DNA of 25,615 nt, from UHGV virus genome UHGV-0137099. One strand, written 5' to 3'. The notes beneath the pieces are model-generated. The model made no database searches. It saw only the letters and a list, made by a program, of their open reading frames with translations, and had not been told where the DNA came from. This DNA comes from a virus. The position numbers and the translations under genes are program-made. Positions 2,462-14,248 of the stretch are shown here, piece by piece (position 1 is the first letter of the stretch; every line of letters begins with the position of its first letter).

Positions 2462-4611
2462 TATGCTTTCTCCTCGGCTTTATTCAGTTCCTTAATACGG
2501 CCATCCTTAATGGTGATGAGTCGGCGGAGTCGGCCAGACAGATAGCGTTCATGCTGCGTATCGCCGTTGGCCTGGGCGGCTTTAATGTGTACATCGATCT
2601 CACGTGCAATAGGGGAAAATACGCCATTGATTTCGTTCACCGTCACGCCATGCGCCAGGGTATTCGCAACGCGGCTTAATTTGTCGTCAAACTCCTGGCG
2701 AAGCCGTGCTGCATCTTCGGCTGATTCGCTGGCATTCTTCAGGTCAAACTCGGCCTTATTCTTCTGGCGGTACTCCAGATTGTCGTAAAGCCCCATAAAG
2801 ATATCGCCGCTGAATCCGAGGCCGGATAACGCTTTTTTGGTCGCATCAGTCAGTGATTTCTTGGCTGCTTCGCCGTCGCAGGTGATCCCATATTTACTGC
2901 CGTAGATGTAGGGTGTACAGCCGTATGCTGTTTCCTCACCTCGTACGCCGTTCAGGATGTACCAGAGCCGGACAGTCACAACATGGTGCTGTTCGTTGAC
3001 GGTATTACCATTCCCATCAAGAACCAGCTCCCACGATGCGTTGTTGTCTTTTCCTTTTACCTGGCGAGAGATCGGCGCGCCAATATCGAAACGCTCTTCA
3101 ACAATATCCACGCCCCAGCCGATACCCTTAGGGCCAAACTCACGGGTGGCGAGCATGGTCATGTAGGTACCGTTGATCGAGGTGCCACCGCCGTTCTGTG
3201 TGAAAGCCTTAGTAAACCTTTCGTCGGTTTTAAATACGCGTTTCCAGAGGTCTAAATTGTCTTCCCCGATGATTGGTTTTCCGACAGCCTGCACAACATC
3301 CTCAGCGTTAGGCAGGCTTTCAGCGTGAGCGATTTGTTTTGCTAAACGCTCGGAATCATCAGCCAGTTTTTCAGCCTTAACGCTTAACTTCTCTTCCGGC
3401 TCTGCACCTTCACCAGAGGCATATACGCCATAACCCATATCATTGAGCGTCTCACGCGCCTGTTTGGCCTGGGTGTCGGTTACAACCGGCTGCGGCGCTT
3501 CCACTTTTTCGCCCACGTTTGAGGCGGTATTTTGCGTCGCCTCTGGTTGTTTAACGGATCCTGTCTCGGTTTCCTCAAAGCGGCCGTTGGCCGCCAGCCA
3601 TGAATCGATATGGCGGCGCAGGCTGTCAGGGAAATGGTAGGTATCTTTCGCCGGTACGTTTTGTACCACGCCGAAGATGCTGGCGCGGTCGTATTTGAGT
3701 ATCTGCGGCGTGGTGTGCAGCGATGCTGACCAGCGTTTAAAATCTTCCCGGTCATCGGAAATCATCTTCTTAGCGTCCAGAAGGTTTCCGGATAGTACCG
3801 GCGCATCAGGCGCCAGCGGGAGAAGGGCGGTAGCGATCTCCTGATCCAGCGTTGCATAAGTGTGTTTATACCCGCGCTTAGAAATTACCACTGGCGTTTT
3901 ATCATCGGTGCTGGTGCTGAGAGCGGTATTTTTATATACGCCAGGGGCCAGTTCGTCGCGTTTGCCCGGATTCTCAAGCCAGCTTTTAACGAACTGAGAG
4001 ATAGCCGCTTTACCCGGCGTCTGGTTTTCAAAGTGGGAGAAAATACCCTGAATAAGATTGTTCAGACCTTCCACATGCATGCTTTGAATCGGGAAGTTAT
4101 TTTGCAGGGCGCACAGCACGTTAAAGTTGAAGCGGTCTTCTTCTTCAAATTCCCCATCGTGGTTTTTCAGGTTATCCAGATAATCCACAACCTGAGAATA
4201 AAGATGGCCATCAATCGCCGCGGTGCTAAAAAGCAGGACGGCAGCAAAGCGTTCTTCAGCGGAAACGGTCATAAGGTCGATCACTTCATCGTCGGCAGGT
4301 AAACCAGCACTACTTCCGGAAGCGCTATCCTGCACAGTAGAAATCCATTTTTCACCGTCAAAAGTATGCTGCTGGGCGAATGACTCATCGAACTGGCCAA
4401 CGGTAGGCAGCGGCTGGCCTTCAATGTGTTCCCACAGTTTCGGTTTGAAATAGTTGTCACCATTGGCCGGGTATGATTCCCAGAGTTTGCCGGTCATAAT
4501 GCTTTCGGCCACTTTTTTGTTTGGCGCATCGATTGCGATCGTCAGCTGAACGGCGCCGCAGTCTTTAATCGCCGATTTCTTTGGCTCAAATAAGCCGTTG
4601 TAGATGGTCAT
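2461..4611 (-). CDS. Rad52-family single-strand annealing protein with a ~450-aa N-terminal extension of unknown function
   Basis: C-terminal region FGPKGIGWG ... AYGCTPYIYGSKYG ... AAKKSLTDATKKALSGLGFSG resembles the Rad52 annealing core (FGYNGW ... KARKEAVTDGLKRALRSFG). Start chosen at ATG 4611 (MTIYNGLF...), which is directly preceded by GAGGAAAGACCA; the track's longer start at 4644 lacks this. Confidence 0.75.
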   Translation of the reverse strand: MTIYNGLFEPKKSAIKDCGAVQLTIAIDAPNKKVAESIMTGKLWESYPANGDNYFKPKLWEHIEGQPLPTVGQFDESFAQQHTFDGEKWISTVQDSASGSSAGLPADDEVIDLMTVSAEERFAAVLLFSTAAIDGHLYSQVVDYLDNLKNHDGEFEEEDRFNFNVLCALQNNFPIQSMHVEGLNNLIQGIFSHFENQTPGKAAISQFVKSWLENPGKRDELAPGVYKNTALSTSTDDKTPVVISKRGYKHTYATLDQEIATALLPLAPDAPVLSGNLLDAKKMISDDREDFKRWSASLHTTPQILKYDRASIFGVVQNVPAKDTYHFPDSLRRHIDSWLAANGRFEETETGSVKQPEATQNTASNVGEKVEAPQPVVTDTQAKQARETLNDMGYGVYASGEGAEPEEKLSVKAEKLADDSERLAKQIAHAESLPNAEDVVQAVGKPIIGEDNLDLWKRVFKTDERFTKAFTQNGGGTSINGTYMTMLATREFGPKGIGWGVDIVEERFDIGAPISRQVKGKDNNASWELVLDGNGNTVNEQHHVVTVRLWYILNGVRGEETAYGCTPYIYGSKYGITCDGEAAKKSLTDATKKALSGLGFSGDIFMGLYDNLEYRQKNKAEFDLKNASESAEDAARLRQEFDDKLSRVANTLAHGVTVNEINGVFSPIAREIDVHIKAAQANGDTQHERYLSGRLRRLITIKDGRIKELNKAEEKA

Positions 4612-4655: not shown

Positions 4656-4979
4656 TTAAAACGGTACGTCGCTTTCTTCAATCGGAGAGTGATCGATGCA
4701 CAGCAGCTGCTGAATCTGGTCTTCAATAACACCCAGCTCCTTCTTAGCTTCGGCAGAGATTTTCTCTTTCTTCGCGCGAAGGGCATTAACCTGCATACCA
4801 ATAATGTCGATTGGTTCTAAAGCCGGGATGGCAACCTCTACCGTTTTGGTAGTAACGAGGACATACAGATCAGGGTATTGCTGTGACATGTCACAGGTGA
4901 ATGAGTGATAAGACGTTGGTAGATATGGGTTCGTTGTGGCCATAACGTAAACAGTTACGGGGATGGTAAGCGCTTCCAT
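4656..4979 (-). CDS. Hypothetical protein (107 aa)
   Basis: ORF on the operon strand with a strong SD (AAGGAG, 6-nt spacing) before ATG 4979. An alternative layout is an upstream 47-aa ORF from 5035 coupled to an internal ATG at 4889 (see findings). Confidence 0.5.
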   Translation of the reverse strand: MEALTIPVTVYVMATTNPYLPTSYHSFTCDMSQQYPDLYVLVTTKTVEVAIPALEPIDIIGMQVNALRAKKEKISAEAKKELGVIEDQIQQLLCIDHSPIEESDVPF

Positions 4980-5035: not shown

Positions 5036-5427
5036 GGTCTTTCCTCATCACAAGCTTGGTCGCTTGTGATAAGTCCGAATGGTTTGGTCACCGTTCGGGG
5101 TAACTGGCCCGCCTTGTGCGGGCCTTTTGCCATCTAAAGGTTGCCGGTCTTTCCCGGCTGTCAGGGCTGGTCACGCCCGTTGGTCATTGGTCTTTCCTCC
5201 CGGTCTTTCCCGGCGCCAGAGCTGGTCAGGCTCGCTGGTCTTTCCTCACAGGCTCCCTCTTTTCGAGGGCTTCAGTTTTCACTGAACGGTCGCATAAATC
5301 TTTACTGTGTTAAAAAAATGCCCGGGGCGCCCGGGCCAAGACTACACACAGCAATTCGTATTCGTTGCGGTCTTTCCCGCATGTCATCGTACTGTCGGCG
5401 ACCCGAAGAATTCGTGCCCGTCTTTCC
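5036..5427. repeat. Array of at least 7 copies of the core GGTCTTTCC (minus-strand sense GGAAAGACC), several extended to CGGTCTTTCCCGG...CTGTCAG/GCTGGTC units
   Basis: Copies at 5036, 5146, 5189, 5202, 5237, 5369 and a degenerate one at 5419; the same core precedes start codons at 1499 and 4613. Confidence 0.8.
5312..5336 (-). terminator. Rho-independent terminator for leftward transcription
   Basis: GC hairpin GCCCGG-GGCGC-CCGGGC; on the minus strand it is followed by ATTTTTTT. Confidence 0.6.
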
Positions 5428-5581
5428 GGACTGTCAGAACTGTTTCTGAACAACTGCCGCGTGGTTAGTGCGTCGTTGATGTGATGTAATTTAGGTAAAT
5501 CTAACAAATTGGTCAATGATTAAATTAGAAAAAACGAACAATATGAGCGTAAAAAAATACATCTATCTGATTAGAAAGGGA

Positions 5582-5968
5582 TTATTTTTGTTTGCGGGCT
5601 TGCAGTAACTCTTCAAATAAACGATTGAAACCGTCTACTTTTTCGCGAAGTTCCGTTAAATGCCGCTCTTTTTCAGATTCAGGGAGTGACGAAAAGAGTT
5701 TTAAAAGCTCTGTTTCTCGTTCATCTAACGGCGGCGGGGTGTCTACCGGGGTTCCCGGAGTGGCGGCTTCATCGCCGTAAAGTATCCAGGTAGGGCTGCA
5801 TTGAAGTGCGTTACTTAAAGCGAATAGGTTTTTCCCGCCAGGCTCACTATCACCGGTCTCCCACTGGGAGATAGTGACGTGCGCGACGTTAACCAGCTTC
5901 GCTAAAGCGCGCTGAGTAAGTTTGAGATCTTTTCTACGCGCTCTGATGCGCTCACCTGGCATTGTCAT
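5582..5968 (-). CDS. Phage repressor, short XRE-family HTH protein without a LexA-like peptidase domain
   Basis: 128 aa; N-terminal HTH (LKLTQRALAKLVNVAHVTISQWETG); divergent from a Cro-like gene; no SD upstream of the ATG, so possibly leaderless like lambda cI from pRM. Confidence 0.8.
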   Translation of the reverse strand: MTMPGERIRARRKDLKLTQRALAKLVNVAHVTISQWETGDSEPGGKNLFALSNALQCSPTWILYGDEAATPGTPVDTPPPLDERETELLKLFSSLPESEKERHLTELREKVDGFNRLFEELLQARKQK

Positions 5969-5970
5969 AG

Positions 5971-6025
5971 TTAGATAATTCTAAATTTCCTTGACTTCGT
6001 TATCTCGAACACCTAATTTGTTAGG
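5971..6025. promoter_or_regulatory. Immunity-region operators and a rightward sigma70-like promoter (pR-like)
   Basis: Palindromes TTAGATAATTCTAA (5971-5984) and CCTAATTTGTTAGG (6012-6025); -35 TTGACT (5991-5996), 17-bp spacer, -10 TAATTT (6014-6019); SD CAGGAGGG before the cro-like ATG at 6049. Confidence 0.55.
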
Positions 6026-6048
6026 AAAATCTAACAGGAGGGTGTTTC

Positions 6049-6243
6049 ATGTTAACAACTGATGCGATCAAATATTTTGGTAGTAAGAGAAAACTGGCTG
6101 AGGCCGCTGGCGTTAAGGCTCCTACTGTCTATGCGTGGGGGCGTTTGGTTCCTGAAGGTAAAGCGGCTCGTTTGTCTCTGATGACTGATGGCGAACTTGT
6201 TTATGACCCAAAGGCTTACCAACTGCCAGCCAAATCAGCTTAA
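6049..6243 (+). CDS. cro: Cro-like repressor (P22 Cro family)
   Basis: 64 aa; IKYFGSKRKLAEAAGVKAPTVYAWGRLVPEGKAARLSLMTDGELVY parallels P22 Cro IDHFGTQRAVAKALGISDAAVSQWKEVIPEKDAYRLEIVTAGALKY (recalled from memory); divergent from the repressor. Confidence 0.8.
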   Translation: MLTTDAIKYFGSKRKLAEAAGVKAPTVYAWGRLVPEGKAARLSLMTDGELVYDPKAYQLPAKSA

Positions 6244-6305: not shown

Positions 6306-6752
6306 GTGGAATACCTCGAAGAACTTAAACGAGAGATCTTTAACTGGGCAGCGGAAAGCGGGCAGGAGCTGGTTGCTATCGAGATAAGCCGCATGTGGTT
6401 TCGTCTTGGTGGTAATACCGGTTCGCTGAAGCTGCACCAGATCGAAGATGCAGATGGAAACGCCGACTGGCGGGCAATCAACAACAACCGCCAACAAATT
6501 TTTCGTTGGTTGAGAGGCGAGACCAAAGCCGCGAGAGCCAAAACTCTGGCGCTGGTCAAAGCGATGGAAGCGGCGCTGCCGGCAGAGCGTTACGCTCGCT
6601 TGGGTATGTCCACCCAGTATTTAATTTGTGTGGCCATTCGTGAGTTTGCCGCGGCGATTATCGCGTTGTTACTCGACGCCAGAGACGGGCCGCAGCAAGT
6701 CGCCAGAGCATTGCAAGCTATGCGAGAAACACAGCGCCTGACCAGCGTTTAA
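6306..6752 (+). CDS. Early regulatory protein, possibly CII-like / YdaT-family
   Basis: 148 aa with GTG start and AGGAG SD; sits where cII lies in lambdoid phages (right after cro). Family call is tentative. Confidence 0.45.
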   Translation: MEYLEELKREIFNWAAESGQELVAIEISRMWFRLGGNTGSLKLHQIEDADGNADWRAINNNRQQIFRWLRGETKAARAKTLALVKAMEAALPAERYARLGMSTQYLICVAIREFAAAIIALLLDARDGPQQVARALQAMRETQRLTSV

Positions 6753-6772: not shown

Positions 6773-6994
6773 ATGAGAACACAAGACCGCATCACCTGGC
6801 GGAACGGGTTTCGCCGGAACGGGGTACAAGTCCCGATAGAAGATATCGAATCGATTTTCGAGGAACGTCGCGCTACTGCGCTGACAATCTGGGAACGCTA
6901 TGAACTGCGTAAGGCAGACCTACAGGAAGCGGGACTCACCCAGAAAGAATACGAAATCGCCTGCCGCCAGCTGGCTGACTCGCTGGGGATTTGA
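6773..6994 (+). CDS. Hypothetical protein (73 aa)
   Basis: Start preceded by the conserved GAGGAAAGACCAATG module and an upstream GC hairpin. Confidence 0.5.
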   Translation: MRTQDRITWRNGFRRNGVQVPIEDIESIFEERRATALTIWERYELRKADLQEAGLTQKEYEIACRQLADSLGI

Positions 6995-9421: not shown

Positions 9422-10090
9422 ATGACCACGAATTTAAATTACCCAAAACCAGTAAAACCGGATGATGGCTGCAACTGGCTCCCCGTTATTCTCTGGCGCA
9501 TGAACGCCGGCGCGCGCGCCCGTAGCCGTTCCGTGTTCGTTGCGGCGCCACGTCCGGCACCTGTACCCGGCATCACCCCGCAAAAACCGATTAAACGTGA
9601 AATTATCGCCCCTACGGTTTCCGGTCGCAGGCGAAAAACCCACATCGGCACTGTGATTTATTCCAGAGGTGAAAAAAACGTTCGCCTGAGTGAAGGTGCT
9701 ACCGTCTGGTCTGCTGGCTCTAATGAGCATTTCGATAAAAAAACGGGCCGGCGCGTTGGCAGTATTGGCCGTCACCGTCTGGTGCTTGAGAGTATTCGCC
9801 CATTGCGGGCCAGCGACGAACAGCAGGACGCCGGGAGCATCACCGCGCAGCAACTGGTATCCGTGATGAAAGGCAAAACGCTTTCTTACCAGGGCATTCT
9901 AGCATTAATCCAGAAGCACTACCCAGATTGTCAGGTGACGATTAAAGAACTTCACGATCGCGTGTTCGGCATGTTCATGTCGAATTACGTGGGTATCACC
10001 CGTCACGACGATATGCCGGTGGTTCACTTCACGCTTAACAGCGTCGATCCCCGTTATTACATCGAGTCAGCGAAGAACAAGAGGGCATAA
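9422..10090 (+). CDS. Hypothetical protein (222 aa, basic N-terminal half)
   Basis: ORF preceded by GC hairpin CGCGCCTGACCAGCGCG and AGGAAAGACCAATG; no recognisable motif. Confidence 0.55.
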   Translation: MTTNLNYPKPVKPDDGCNWLPVILWRMNAGARARSRSVFVAAPRPAPVPGITPQKPIKREIIAPTVSGRRRKTHIGTVIYSRGEKNVRLSEGATVWSAGSNEHFDKKTGRRVGSIGRHRLVLESIRPLRASDEQQDAGSITAQQLVSVMKGKTLSYQGILALIQKHYPDCQVTIKELHDRVFGMFMSNYVGITRHDDMPVVHFTLNSVDPRYYIESAKNKRA

Positions 10091-10093
10091 GGC

Positions 10094-10327
10094 ATGGCCG
10101 GGCAATCAGATTACTTGCCGCCCGGCTTACCGCTCAATCGCGCCAAATGGCCGCAGGAGTGCCAGATCAAAGAGCACTACGACATGCGCGCCTCGGCACT
10201 CATACGCCAGCTGTTCGAGAAGAAAGTTACTCGACAGGCCATCGTAGAACAGATTGCAGCGACGCCGGAAAGCTACCGGGAGTTTTTCAAAGAGAGATTG
10301 AATTTTTGGCGGGAGAAGCGGACATGA
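10094..10327 (+). CDS. Hypothetical protein (77 aa)
   Basis: Tightly packed ORF 4 nt after the previous stop. Confidence 0.45.
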   Translation: MAGQSDYLPPGLPLNRAKWPQECQIKEHYDMRASALIRQLFEKKVTRQAIVEQIAATPESYREFFKERLNFWREKRT

Positions 10328-12541: not shown

Positions 12542-12570
12542 TTGCGATCACTACTCGTTGGTAGTATATA
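12542..12570 (+). promoter_or_regulatory. Sigma70-like promoter inside an AT-rich moron
   Basis: -35 TTGCGA (12542-12547), 17-bp spacer, -10 TATATA (12565-12570); followed by palindrome ACTGTGAATTTATACAGT and SD GGAGAGG. Confidence 0.45.
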
Positions 12571-12609
12571 TACTGTGAATTTATACAGTATTATTGTTGA
12601 GGAGAGGTA

Positions 12610-12801
12610 GTGGTTGATAAGAAAGACGCAGGAGACCTTCTCCCCGACAATGGTGATGTACTGATTACTTGTGAAAATGGGAAGATTAAGAAGACCAGAA
12701 TTGTCCATCCCGATGAGCACGTAGCGACACTTAACGCGTTGTTTGAATTAGCTAAATTGACTGGTTATACCATTATCAAACCAGACGGCAATATGCTATA
12801 A
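12610..12801 (+). CDS. Hypothetical small protein (63 aa) in an AT-rich moron
   Basis: GTG start after SD GGAGAGG; local GC clearly lower than its neighbours; own promoter-like sequence upstream. Confidence 0.4.
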   Translation: MVDKKDAGDLLPDNGDVLITCENGKIKKTRIVHPDEHVATLNALFELAKLTGYTIIKPDGNML

Positions 12802-12869
12802 TTACACCGTTGGCCTGAACACCCAACACCATGTAATTCTGAACAATTGCTGCGCTAAAGGGGATCCCA

Positions 12870-13466
12870 ATGGCGCAGTATTCTTTTGTAAAAGCACCCG
12901 GCGGTGTATTAATTCCGGCAACGCCTGACGCCCGCGATTTTTTAGAAAAAAAAGTCCGCCTGGGCGGTATTTTGTATGCAGATTTTAAGCAGGCAAGAAA
13001 CCCGGCATTTCACCGTAAATTTTTTGCCCTCCTGAATCTTGGATTTGATTACTGGCAACCTTCCGGCGGTGCAATATTGCCAGCTGATAAAAAACTGGTT
13101 CGTGGTTATGTGCAACTGGTAGCCCACTATGCCGGGCATGCAGACACGTTGCAGGAACTGGCGGATCAGTACCTCCGCGATGAGGCAGAAAAACGCGCAG
13201 GGAATATCAGCGCTGTTAAATCGTTTGAAGCATTCCGTTCCTGGGTAACTATCGAAGCTGGTTTTTATACCGAATACCAGATGCCTGATGGCACCACCCG
13301 CAAAGAACCCAAATCCATATCGTTCGCAAAAATGGACGATGTAGAATTCTCCCAGCTGTATAAATCCGTATTAGACGTCCTCTGGAATTTTATTCTATTC
13401 CGCACCTTCCCCAATCAGCAGGCAGCGGAAAACGCAGCCTCTCAGCTTTTCAGTTATGCGGCCTGA
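12870..13466 (+). CDS. Hypothetical phage protein (198 aa)
   Basis: Long clean ORF with SD AAAGGGGA upstream; no catalytic motif recognised. Confidence 0.6.
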   Translation: MAQYSFVKAPGGVLIPATPDARDFLEKKVRLGGILYADFKQARNPAFHRKFFALLNLGFDYWQPSGGAILPADKKLVRGYVQLVAHYAGHADTLQELADQYLRDEAEKRAGNISAVKSFEAFRSWVTIEAGFYTEYQMPDGTTRKEPKSISFAKMDDVEFSQLYKSVLDVLWNFILFRTFPNQQAAENAASQLFSYAA

Positions 13467-13476
13467 GGCGGACACT

Positions 13477-13953
13477 ATGAAATTCAATATTCGCTCTCAG
13501 ATCGTCGAAATGGATGTGGCCGACGCCCTGAATTTTGTGGGTTACCCCATCCACATTGGCTCGAATGGCTATGCAAAAGTCACCGGCTGGCATTTTGGCA
13601 AGGAAAGATACCTTCATCGCGTCATCATGAATGCGGGACCTCAGGATGTTGTTGATCACATTGATGGTAATAAGCTCAACTGCTCCCGCTCAAATTTGAG
13701 GATCTGCACACAGTCAGACAATACCAAAAACGTTGGTTTGAGGAGTGACAATAGCTCGGGAATTCCGGGAGTTTACTGGGTACCCACTCGCCTCAAATGG
13801 GCGGCGCAAATTTCAGTTGATGGCAGGACTGTTAGTTTAGGCCGCTTTGATGAAATGGCCGATGCTATCGATGCCCGCCGGAAAGCAGAAGATTTGTATT
13901 ACGGGGAGTTTGCAGCCAGCAAGGGGGTGCTTTGTGAAAAAGCGCACCAGTAA
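13477..13953 (+). CDS. HNH endonuclease with C-terminal AP2 DNA-binding domain (homing-endonuclease-like)
   Basis: HNH block HRVIMNAGPQDVVDHIDGNKLNCSRSNLRICTQSDNTKN; AP2-like block GIPGVYWVPTRLKWAAQISVDGRTVSLGRFDEMADAIDARRKAEDLYYGEFA. Start set at ATG 13477, after the upstream stop. Confidence 0.8.
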   Translation: MKFNIRSQIVEMDVADALNFVGYPIHIGSNGYAKVTGWHFGKERYLHRVIMNAGPQDVVDHIDGNKLNCSRSNLRICTQSDNTKNVGLRSDNSSGIPGVYWVPTRLKWAAQISVDGRTVSLGRFDEMADAIDARRKAEDLYYGEFAASKGVLCEKAHQ

Positions 13954-14248
13954 ATCAGACAAACAGCATTTCCAAGATCTCGTAGAGATAGGTTGTATTG
14001 TCTGCAAAGTACACCTCGGCGTGTACTCCCCCCCTGAAATTCACCACATCCGCAAAGGGCAGGGCATAGCCCAGCGCGCCGACCACAAAGAAACTCTCCC
14101 GCTTTGCCCTCCACACCACAGAACCGGCGGACACGGCGTAGCTATCCATGCAGGGCAAAAAACATGGGAAGAAAACTACGGAACGGAGACTGAATTGCTC
14201 GAACAGGTCACTAACGAGGTAAAGGAATTACGCTTATGCAGAATTTAA
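13934..14248 (+). CDS. HNH-family nuclease, Ref-like (recombination enhancement function) candidate
   Basis: Cys/His pattern CIVCKVH ... HHIRKG ... LPLCPPHH typical of zinc-finger HNH nucleases; GTG start at 13934 preceded by AAGGGGG. The track's longer start would overlap the HNH-AP2 gene. Confidence 0.5.
   Translation: MKKRTSKSDKQHFQDLVEIGCIVCKVHLGVYSPPEIHHIRKGQGIAQRADHKETLPLCPPHHRTGGHGVAIHAGQKTWEENYGTETELLEQVTNEVKELRLCRI

Follow-up and report, generated by a model that had tools for sequence, protein, structure and literature searches.

In the DicA/DicC/Rem system of the cryptic Escherichia coli prophage Qin, the repressor DicA binds the operator Oc (TTGTTAGTCATAACTAACAA) in vivo, and binding is lost when one A of a half-site is changed to C (Yun et al., PMC3441716). 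Bound there, DicA both stimulates dicA and represses dicC; the operators Om and Oa are unbound on their own (PMC3441716). The antirepressor Rem relieves the repression of a DicA-controlled promoter 165-fold (Ragunathan et al., PMC10448788), and its inducing signal in E. coli was reported as unknown (PMC10448788). In the Gifsy phages, the repressor GtgR stays uncleaved, and an antirepressor takes it off the DNA (PMC3121763); the gene order is antirepressor–irsA (Lemire et al. 2011, PMC3121763). Here, we compare these systems with the immunity region of the virus genome UHGV-0137099, where 80 base pairs (bp; 5969–6048) separate a leftward open reading frame (ORF) of 128 amino acids (aa) from a rightward ORF of 64 aa. 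The window, i.e., the whole stretch of 25.6 kb that was analyzed (G+C content 53%), is the left part of a lambdoid prophage. With a probability of roughly 0.7, we propose that it carries a bistable lambdoid immunity switch of DicA/DicC type, which is coupled to the SOS response via a small antirepressor. Protein–DNA binding, protein–protein binding, the transcription start site, and the target surface of the antirepressor are what we infer from sequence comparison and modeling.

Repressor, operators, and promoters

The switch comprises the following elements:

5582..5968, minus strand: repressor gene, 128 aa, DicA ortholog by sequence; helix–turn–helix (HTH) only, without peptidase domain
Repressor domains: P22 c2-like HTH, aa 4–64; linker, aa 65–82; two-helix C-terminal module, aa 83–127
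6049..6243, plus strand: cro-like gene, 64 aa, P22_Cro/DicC type; Shine–Dalgarno (SD) sequence AGGAGGG at 6036–6042
5971–5984: putative operator OR3 (Oa equivalent), TTAGATAATTCTAA, 2 bp from the repressor start codon
5996–6009: putative operator OR2 (Om equivalent), degenerate middle operator, TTCGTTATCTCGAA, inside the PR spacer
6018–6037, core 6021–6034: putative operator OR1 (Oc equivalent), TTGTTAGGAAAATCTAACAG, overlapping the last bases of the PR −10 element and the PR start site
5991..6019, plus strand: putative rightward promoter PR, −35 TTGACT (5991–5996), spacer of 17 nucleotides (nt), −10 TAATTT (6014–6019)
5488..5541, minus strand: left control region with putative operators OL1, TTAGGTAAATCTAA (5491–5504), and OL2, TTAGAAAAAACGAA (5525–5538)
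Leftward promoter, minus strand: −35 TTGACC (5516..5511), −10 TAAATT (5493..5488), 17-nt spacer, called by the promoter scan
5975..6003, minus strand: putative promoter of a leaderless repressor transcript, −10 AATTAT (5980..5975), weak −35 ATAACG (6003..5998)

Only HTH families in Pfam matched the repressor (HTH_3 at aa 8–62, E-value 1.6e-16). Against the NCBIfam profile DicA (NF007257), it scored 185.8 bits (cutoff 101), with aa 5–127 aligned to positions 7–131 of 135, and it is 63% identical to E. coli K-12 (Qin) DicA over the full length (E 1e-58). By sequence, the protein is an ortholog of the repressor of the described DicA/DicC/Rem system, which the original prediction for this DNA had not recognized. 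Its aa 3–70 match the DNA-binding domain of P22 c2 (1ADR; E 9e-22), the first 70 residues being 62% identical, and a match to Gifsy-2 GtgR (E 1e-11; 36% identity across 88 aa) extends to the C-terminal motif L..LF..LPE.EK. Database homologs (at least 120, among the matches listed) all comprise 74–144 aa with HTH domains only. The 64-aa Cro-like protein passed the cutoff of Pfam P22_Cro (PF14549; 54.4 bits, cutoff 30.2), and scored 78.7 bits against the narrower NCBIfam family DicC (NF007282; cutoff 130).

An alignment-based AlphaFold2 (AF2) model of the repressor (mean predicted local distance difference test, pLDDT, 86.6) shows a five-helix HTH domain, a linker, and two C-terminal helices (aa 83–93 and 97–127), with no β-rich domain; it replaced a single-sequence AF2 model, which was unusable at a pLDDT of 52. 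The modeled DNA-binding domain superposes on the c2–operator complexes 3JXB and 2R1J at 0.4–0.7 Å. No solved structure covering the C-terminal module or the antirepressor candidate was found. Only two helices follow the linker, and there is no space for a peptidase. Self-cleavage stimulated by RecA, as in lambda CI, is the default paradigm of lambdoid phages, and nothing else was found in its favor. It is effectively excluded here: no S24 peptidase emerged from the profile searches (Pfam and NCBIfam) at a threshold of E 0.1, the protein sequence, read directly, has no Ala-Gly or Cys-Gly dipeptide as a cleavage site, the C-terminal region consists of two helices in about 45 aa, and the homologous Gifsy repressors remain uncleaved on induction (PMC3121763). 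The short repressor without a LexA/S24 autocleavage domain had already been described in the original prediction, which named a profile search for a peptidase domain as a check; no such domain was found, and profile searches and AF2 model agree on this point.

Turning to the operators, TTAG-N6-CTAA occurs exactly three times in the window (5491–5504, 5971–5984, and 6021–6034), always flanking the repressor gene, as compared to an expected number of 0.14; none of 100 shuffles gave three. The half-sites of OR1 (TTGTTAG-N6-CTAACAG) agree with those of Qin Oc (TTGTTAG-N6-CTAACAA) save for the last base, which is G for A. Position and half-sites of OR3 recur in Qin and in two relatives with an SQWE-type recognition helix (L057 and L066). 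Across related loci, this helix type goes along with TTAG-N6-CTAA, the central six bases of which drift between constant half-sites. In the main FKWE-helix class (nine loci), TTAA-N6-TTAA adjoins the start codon. The operator assignment is supported since the half-sites co-vary with the recognition helix. TTAG/CTAA operators had been anticipated by the original prediction, and enrichment, the match to Oc, and co-variation all speak for them as the probable binding sites. Of the two 14-bp palindromes it placed in the 80 bp, both carry TTAG-N6-CTAA, but they are symmetric over the outer 4–5 bp only, and a third, degenerate site at 5996–6009 had been overlooked. The three right-hand sites begin at 5971, 5996, and 6021, i.e., with an exact period of 25 bp; the spacing of the lambda operators is similar (23–24 bp). 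OR2 is kept in all loci of the same immunity type, and we assign it a putative function only, because Qin Om did not bind DicA alone (PMC3441716).

The intergenic plan is the same in both prophages, reading CAT-AG-TTAGctaatgCTAA ... TTGACT ... TTGTTAGttatgaCTAACAA ... ATG in Qin and CAT-AG-TTAGataattCTAA ... TTGACT ... TTGTTAGgaaaatCTAACAG ... ATG in the window. PR occupies the position of the Qin dicC promoter (TTGACT-17-TATCTT) and agrees with the consensus at 8 of 12 positions (−35, 5/6; −10, 3/6). With this, it fell under the scan threshold and was not called, so that the earlier description as near-consensus does not hold. Nor does its −10 element overlap the second palindrome as proposed: TAATTT abuts the 14-bp core, and overlap exists only with the extended 20-bp operator. 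On the left side, both predicted features were recovered, namely the related half-sites, which correspond to OL1 and are joined by a second site, OL2, and the leftward TTGACC/TAAATT pair, which the promoter scan called. This promoter resembles Qin dicBp, in that an operator is followed by GGTCAA.

The repressor gene further appears to be translated from a leaderless mRNA. In the 21 nt 5′ of either possible ATG (5968 or 5962), the energy of pairing with the anti-SD sequence is +0.2 kcal/mol, in agreement with the predicted lack of an SD sequence; values for 13 other window genes range from −5.5 to −11.6, and the SD of the cro-like gene reaches −10.8. The hexamer AATTAT lies within OR3 and has its last base 7 nt before the A of ATG 5968, and the junction CAT-AG-TTAG is conserved in Qin and relatives. 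A distance of 2–7 bp between start codon and first operator, together with the lack of an SD, is common to the window, Qin, and all P22 c2-like classes examined. Only five leaderless mRNAs were found in E. coli by differential RNA sequencing (Romero et al., PMC4681348), including Qin dicA, and three of the five encode prophage repressors (dicA, racR, and ymfK; PMC4681348). Because Qin dicA is leaderless, the junction of start codon and operator is conserved, an SD is absent, and AATTAT lies in the operator, a leaderless transcript starting at the A of ATG 5968 is rated as likely, largely by analogy with Qin and as the original prediction had supposed. It is improbable that the repressor mRNA instead starts at an upstream leftward promoter and either carries an SD-less leader of about 50 nt or is translated from the second ATG. 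For such an mRNA, the scan calls TTAACA/16 nt/TAGATT at 6055..6028 (9/12, extended TG), the hexamers of the leaderless promoter are weak (AATTAT 4/6 and ATAACG 3/6), and some database entries give a 126-aa product from the second ATG. However, TTAACA lies within the cro coding sequence and is missing from Qin, whose dicA was mapped as leaderless, start codon and first operator adjoin each other in all P22 c2-like classes, and internal initiation without any SD would be inefficient.

ORF63, its LexA box, and related loci

The candidate antirepressor gene (ORF63) and its surroundings are made up as follows:

12610..12801, plus strand: ORF63, 63-aa Rem-family candidate antirepressor; GTG start; SD GAGGAGAGG at 12599–12607
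12542..12590, plus strand: putative SOS promoter, −35 TTGCGA (12542–12547), 17 nt, −10 TATATA (12565–12570), followed by the LexA box
12571–12590: LexA box TACTGTGAATTTATACAGTA, directly after the −10 element, ending 19 nt before the GTG
12870..13466, plus strand: DUF1367 gene, 3′ of ORF63 (Pfam DUF1367, E 2e-83)

The LexA box is the sole match to TACTGT-N8-ACAGTA in the window (0.02 expected) and agrees with the LexA consensus at 17 of 20 positions. Together with ORF63, it lies 6.6 kb from the repressor gene and outside the immunity region. ORF63 matched phrog_340 with an E-value of 8.6e-23, as did K-12 Rem with 4.4e-21. Comparison of the ORF63 family with the Rem alignment by hhalign ran end to end (94.3% probability, E 9.6e-8), the ORF63 homolog P0015 carries PF27490, the Pfam family named Rem, and reciprocal best tblastn matches between the window and Qin connected ORF63 and Rem. 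Among PHROGs with an anti-repressor annotation, ORF63 had weaker matches to C-terminal parts. Other Ant-type genes (classical Ant, KilAC, and Bro-type) were not found among the window ORFs scanned. The original prediction had presumed that induction needs an antirepressor and had advised a search beyond the switch; this search yielded ORF63 (12610–12801) as the candidate, a Rem-family gene behind a conserved LexA box (12571–12801), which would fit that role.

With regard to the genes further downstream, phage Rac 442/2 likewise has a DUF1367 gene behind rem, and this gene carries the annotation irsA. A promoter-like pair at the 3′ end of ORF63 (12773–12802; TTATCA/18 nt/TATAAT, extended TG, 10/12) could drive the DUF1367 gene independently of LexA. 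A homolog of a RecA-dependent Ref-like nuclease (13847–14248) and an overlapping HNH endonuclease (13456–13953) also lie downstream of the SOS-controlled gene.

For comparison, 65 loci encoding ORF63 relatives were collected, their sources being viral contigs as well as Raoultella, Serratia, and Symbiopectobacterium genomes. Of these, 63 include upstream sequence, and 62 of the 63 have a CTGT-N8-ACAG box 17–55 nt before the start; its retention holds down to 44% protein identity of the ORF63 relatives, with variation in the AT-rich center; −35, −10, SD, and GTG start are kept as well. LexA boxes 5′ of Rem-type genes were also present in other Klebsiella prophages examined, once in the order dinI–rem as in Gifsy. 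E. coli rem genes lack a LexA box, and SOS control is therefore not universal in the Rem family. Upstream of E. coli-type rem, we observed the conserved element TAGCGCGCAGGGAnAAGAGGGATGG (Qin 3904–4125, L002; also L069, L070, and L071), which sits downstream of a hok/mok cassette and terminator and may bear on the Rem signal in E. coli.

A short repressor (128–154 aa) is encoded 5–9 kb to the left of the antirepressor in 51 of the 53 loci with enough upstream DNA. The N-terminal parts of these 51 proteins fall into P22 c2-like subclasses, a lambda cI-like type, and a GtgR-like type, and all of them end in one module (LF..LPESEKERHL..L..KV.GF.RLFEELL). Antirepressors of about 95% identity accompany six or more of these repressor classes. 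Phage records with rem also largely coincide with those with full-length DicA-like repressors. Module flavor follows antirepressor flavor: 'SEQ...RARV.NFN' goes with 'EFVTSL' Rem proteins (Qin, mEp460, PPompW, Rac 442/2, and two Klebsiella prophage types), and 'SEKERH...KV.GF' goes with 'EHVA(T/S)LNAL' ORF63 proteins. This co-variation, which was also seen within Klebsiella, suggests that the antirepressor contacts the C-terminal module, although it is not proof. More tentatively, and at slightly less than even odds, the two-helix module of about 45 aa may be a portable domain for dimerization and antirepressor reception, which has been fused to DNA-binding domains of different specificity. 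If this were true, immunity specificity and induction specificity would reside in separate, exchangeable domains, and a single Rem-like protein of 63 aa under LexA control could trigger many heteroimmune prophages at once in Klebsiella and its relatives. The SOS response would then be the missing inducing signal for much of the Rem family, with Qin-type rem as a derived exception.

Proposed switch and alternatives

In the lysogen, the 128-aa repressor would most likely be dimeric, held together by its C-terminal two-helix module, and would bind the TTAG-N6-CTAA operators through its P22 c2-like HTH. At OR1 (6018–6037), and probably OR2, it would block PR and with it the expression of the cro, ydaT-family, and replication genes, and at OL1 (5491–5504) it would block the leftward promoter. 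The repressor itself would be made from a leaderless mRNA and a weak promoter; as the −10 element of this promoter lies inside OR3, its own synthesis would be shut off at high concentration, and by analogy with DicA at Oc, the right-hand sites may stimulate it. Upon DNA damage, host LexA would be cleaved and leave 12571–12590, ORF63 would be made, bind the repressor, probably at the C-terminal module, and strip it off the DNA, leading to lytic development.

Several observations weigh against this proposal. Sequence identity between ORF63 and Rem is only about 23%, and the 28-aa insertion of Rem is absent from ORF63; plain BLASTP between the two was not significant, and the relationship was resolved by profile methods. 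Homology between ORF63 and GftA went undetected by hhalign (5% probability) and is not claimed; GftA belongs to phrog_4847 and matches phrog_340 with E 0.23 only. Published PSI-BLAST chains connect GfoA to Rem (PMC10448788). The lack of a LexA box at E. coli rem genes, as described above, and the uncertain occupancy of OR2 and OR3 count in the same direction. One related locus (L063) keeps the LexA box and an ORF63 homolog (9995–10183) beside a repressor that looks S24-type (3248–3505). Its backbone is that of the same phage (flanking proteins 85–94% identical), with a 241-aa repressor in the immunity slot that looks self-cleaving, judged by length and C-terminal sequence alone. ORF63 is therefore not always paired with this repressor type. 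The arrangement would represent a swap of the immunity module that left an 'orphan' antirepressor, which could act on co-resident prophages.

The main alternative, which we rate as rather unlikely, is that the switch is built as described but ORF63 is not the inducer and has another SOS role, e.g., modulation of RecA like DinI, or acts on repressors of co-resident prophages only. Induction would then depend on an antirepressor encoded outside the window, on Cro-driven bistability, or on a temperature- or stress-sensitive repressor. In this direction point the Qin dicB promoter, which fires without RecA or Rem, either spontaneously (about 1% of cells) or in a Rem-independent response to heat and urea (PMC10448788), and the better binding of DicA to Oc at 25 °C than at 37 °C (PMC3441716). 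Furthermore, L063 has its ORF63 homolog by an S24-type-looking repressor, as Fels-1 has FsoA (PMC3121763), and the window covers only part of the prophage, with the late half lying outside. However, ORF63 belongs to the family of Rem, a proven DicA antirepressor; the C-terminal module stands alongside it in 51 of 53 loci, with flavors that co-vary; its position is that of the Gifsy antirepressors (LexA box, antirepressor, and irsA/DUF1367); and no other Ant-like gene was present among the scanned ORFs. We thus favor ORF63 as the probable link between SOS response and repressor.

Literature searches found no report of LexA control of Rem among the papers returned, and the only one of these that covers antirepressor, DicA, LexA, and Rem together calls the signal unknown. 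Beyond the literature found, sequence comparison indicates that Rem-family antirepressors are directly wired to LexA in many prophages of Klebsiella, Raoultella, Serratia, and related bacteria, and that the antirepressor appears to travel with the C-terminal module of the repressor, not with its DNA-binding domain. This pairing predicts that heteroimmune prophages in polylysogenic clinical Enterobacterales are cross-induced by DNA-damaging antibiotics. For the switch itself, a complete parts list of operators, promoters, antirepressor, and LexA box is now at hand.

Prophage context and comparison with known systems

The order across the window is integrase, replication genes, and terminase, and xis is also present. 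The prophage is apparently intact, enterobacterial, and probably of Klebsiella type; it is probably inducible. Additional genes are listed here:

35–118: tRNA gene (Rfam), adjoining the integration point
253–1269: integrase
6306..6752, plus strand: YdaT-family gene, 148 aa (Pfam YdaT_toxin, E 3e-21; phrog_163, E 4e-39)

PHROGs labels phrog_163, the family of the YdaT-family gene, as a CII-like activator. Neither dicB nor dicF was detected in the window; as the tRNA is the only RNA family that Rfam matched there, there is no dicF-like small RNA. Complete E. coli genomes gave partial matches only to this immunity region. Two records, OM816834 ('Stenotrophomonas phage vB_SmeS_BUCT708') and OM816835, are 91.6% identical to the region. 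Apart from these two, the relatives of the region are all from Klebsiella, Raoultella, Citrobacter, and Serratia, and the host label Stenotrophomonas maltophilia looks doubtful.

To the left of the repressor gene, the perfect 16-bp palindrome CTGTGACATGTCACAG (4881–4896) lies within a phrog_2479 gene and is kept in about 25 related loci. It is the second perfect match to CTGT-N8-ACAG, but was rejected as a LexA site owing to its G+C-rich center and intragenic position. The motif GGAAAGAC is present in 12 copies in the window (0.91 expected), seven of them in the 400-nt leader of the leftward operon (5037–5427, minus strand). Four of the leader copies form small hairpins, in which the loop GAAAGA is invariant and the stems co-vary (CCGG/CCGG, GCGG/CCGC, GUCCG/CGGGC, and GCCGG/CCGGC), each with a CTGACAG-like motif 5′ of it. 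A strong intrinsic terminator (5336..5320 followed by T7) has two leader hairpins on either side. The hairpins resemble a series of boxB-like sites to which an antiterminator or RNA-binding protein might bind. Most related loci carry five to seven copies of the hairpin motif left of the repressor, regardless of repressor class. A near-identical initiation cassette, GAGGAAAGACC(A)ATG(A), is found at the starts 1498, 4611, 5035, 5188, 6773, 9422, and 18129. It stands 5′ of at least five real genes (xis, a large recombination ORF, and the ORFs at 6773, 9422, and 18129) and of two small ORFs in the left leader; the 9-mer GGAAAGACC is common to the cassette and the leader hairpins. A 727-aa ORF listed from GTG 4644 probably has its true start at ATG 4611.

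Comparison with lambda reveals three operators about 2.4 helical turns apart between divergent repressor and cro promoters (OR1–OR2–OR3 in lambda), the operator nearest the repressor gene overlapping the promoter of the repressor itself, and, as for cI from PRM, a repressor mRNA that is probably leaderless. Unlike in lambda, the middle site is degenerate, induction would proceed without cleavage of the repressor, and the two promoters interdigitate because the intergenic region comprises only 80 bp. The N-terminal domain is like that of P22 c2, including a similar width of the operator footprint, symmetric half-sites, and a non-conserved center. The half-site is TTAAG in P22 and TTAG in the window. 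P22 c2 differs in having 216 aa with a self-cleaving S24 C-terminal domain, the place of which is taken here by the two-helix module.

A structural analogy only exists to SinR/SinI of Bacillus subtilis, which is not a phage system and has no sequence relationship; it combines an Xre-type HTH with a C-terminal helical multimerization domain to which a small antagonist binds, as proposed here for ORF63. The complex 1B0N was seventh among the Foldseek matches, with poor superposition (root-mean-square deviation 9 Å). Like ORF63 as proposed, Tum of phage 186 and AntC of N15 are LexA-controlled antirepressors that bind a non-cleavable repressor (PMC3121763); however, the proteins and phage types are unrelated, and Tum (146 aa) is a fusion with a DinI-like half.

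Closer are the Gifsy-1, -2, and -3 phages (repressors GfoR, GtgR, and GfhR; antirepressors GfoA, GftA, and GfhA), with which the locus shares a short non-cleavable repressor and a small gene for an antirepressor (here a candidate), which starts with GTG, lies away from the immunity region, and is flanked by a LexA box on the 5′ and irsA/DUF1367 on the 3′ side. As in Gifsy, a single antirepressor is expected to act on heteroimmune repressors. Unlike in Gifsy, there is no dinI between LexA box and antirepressor, and the DNA-binding domain is P22 c2-like, unlike that of Gifsy-2 GtgR. With DicA/DicC/Rem of Qin and phage mEp460, it has in common a repressor divergent from a P22_Cro/DicC-type gene and an antirepressor of the Rem family. 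It differs from the cryptic Qin remnant in that the prophage is apparently intact (int, xis, replication genes, and terminase), and ORF63 has 63 aa and its own LexA box, as compared to 83 aa for Rem and E. coli rem genes without one. The system is not new in kind, as every component has a described counterpart; its class is the DicA/Rem and Gifsy-type SOS-antirepressor switch.

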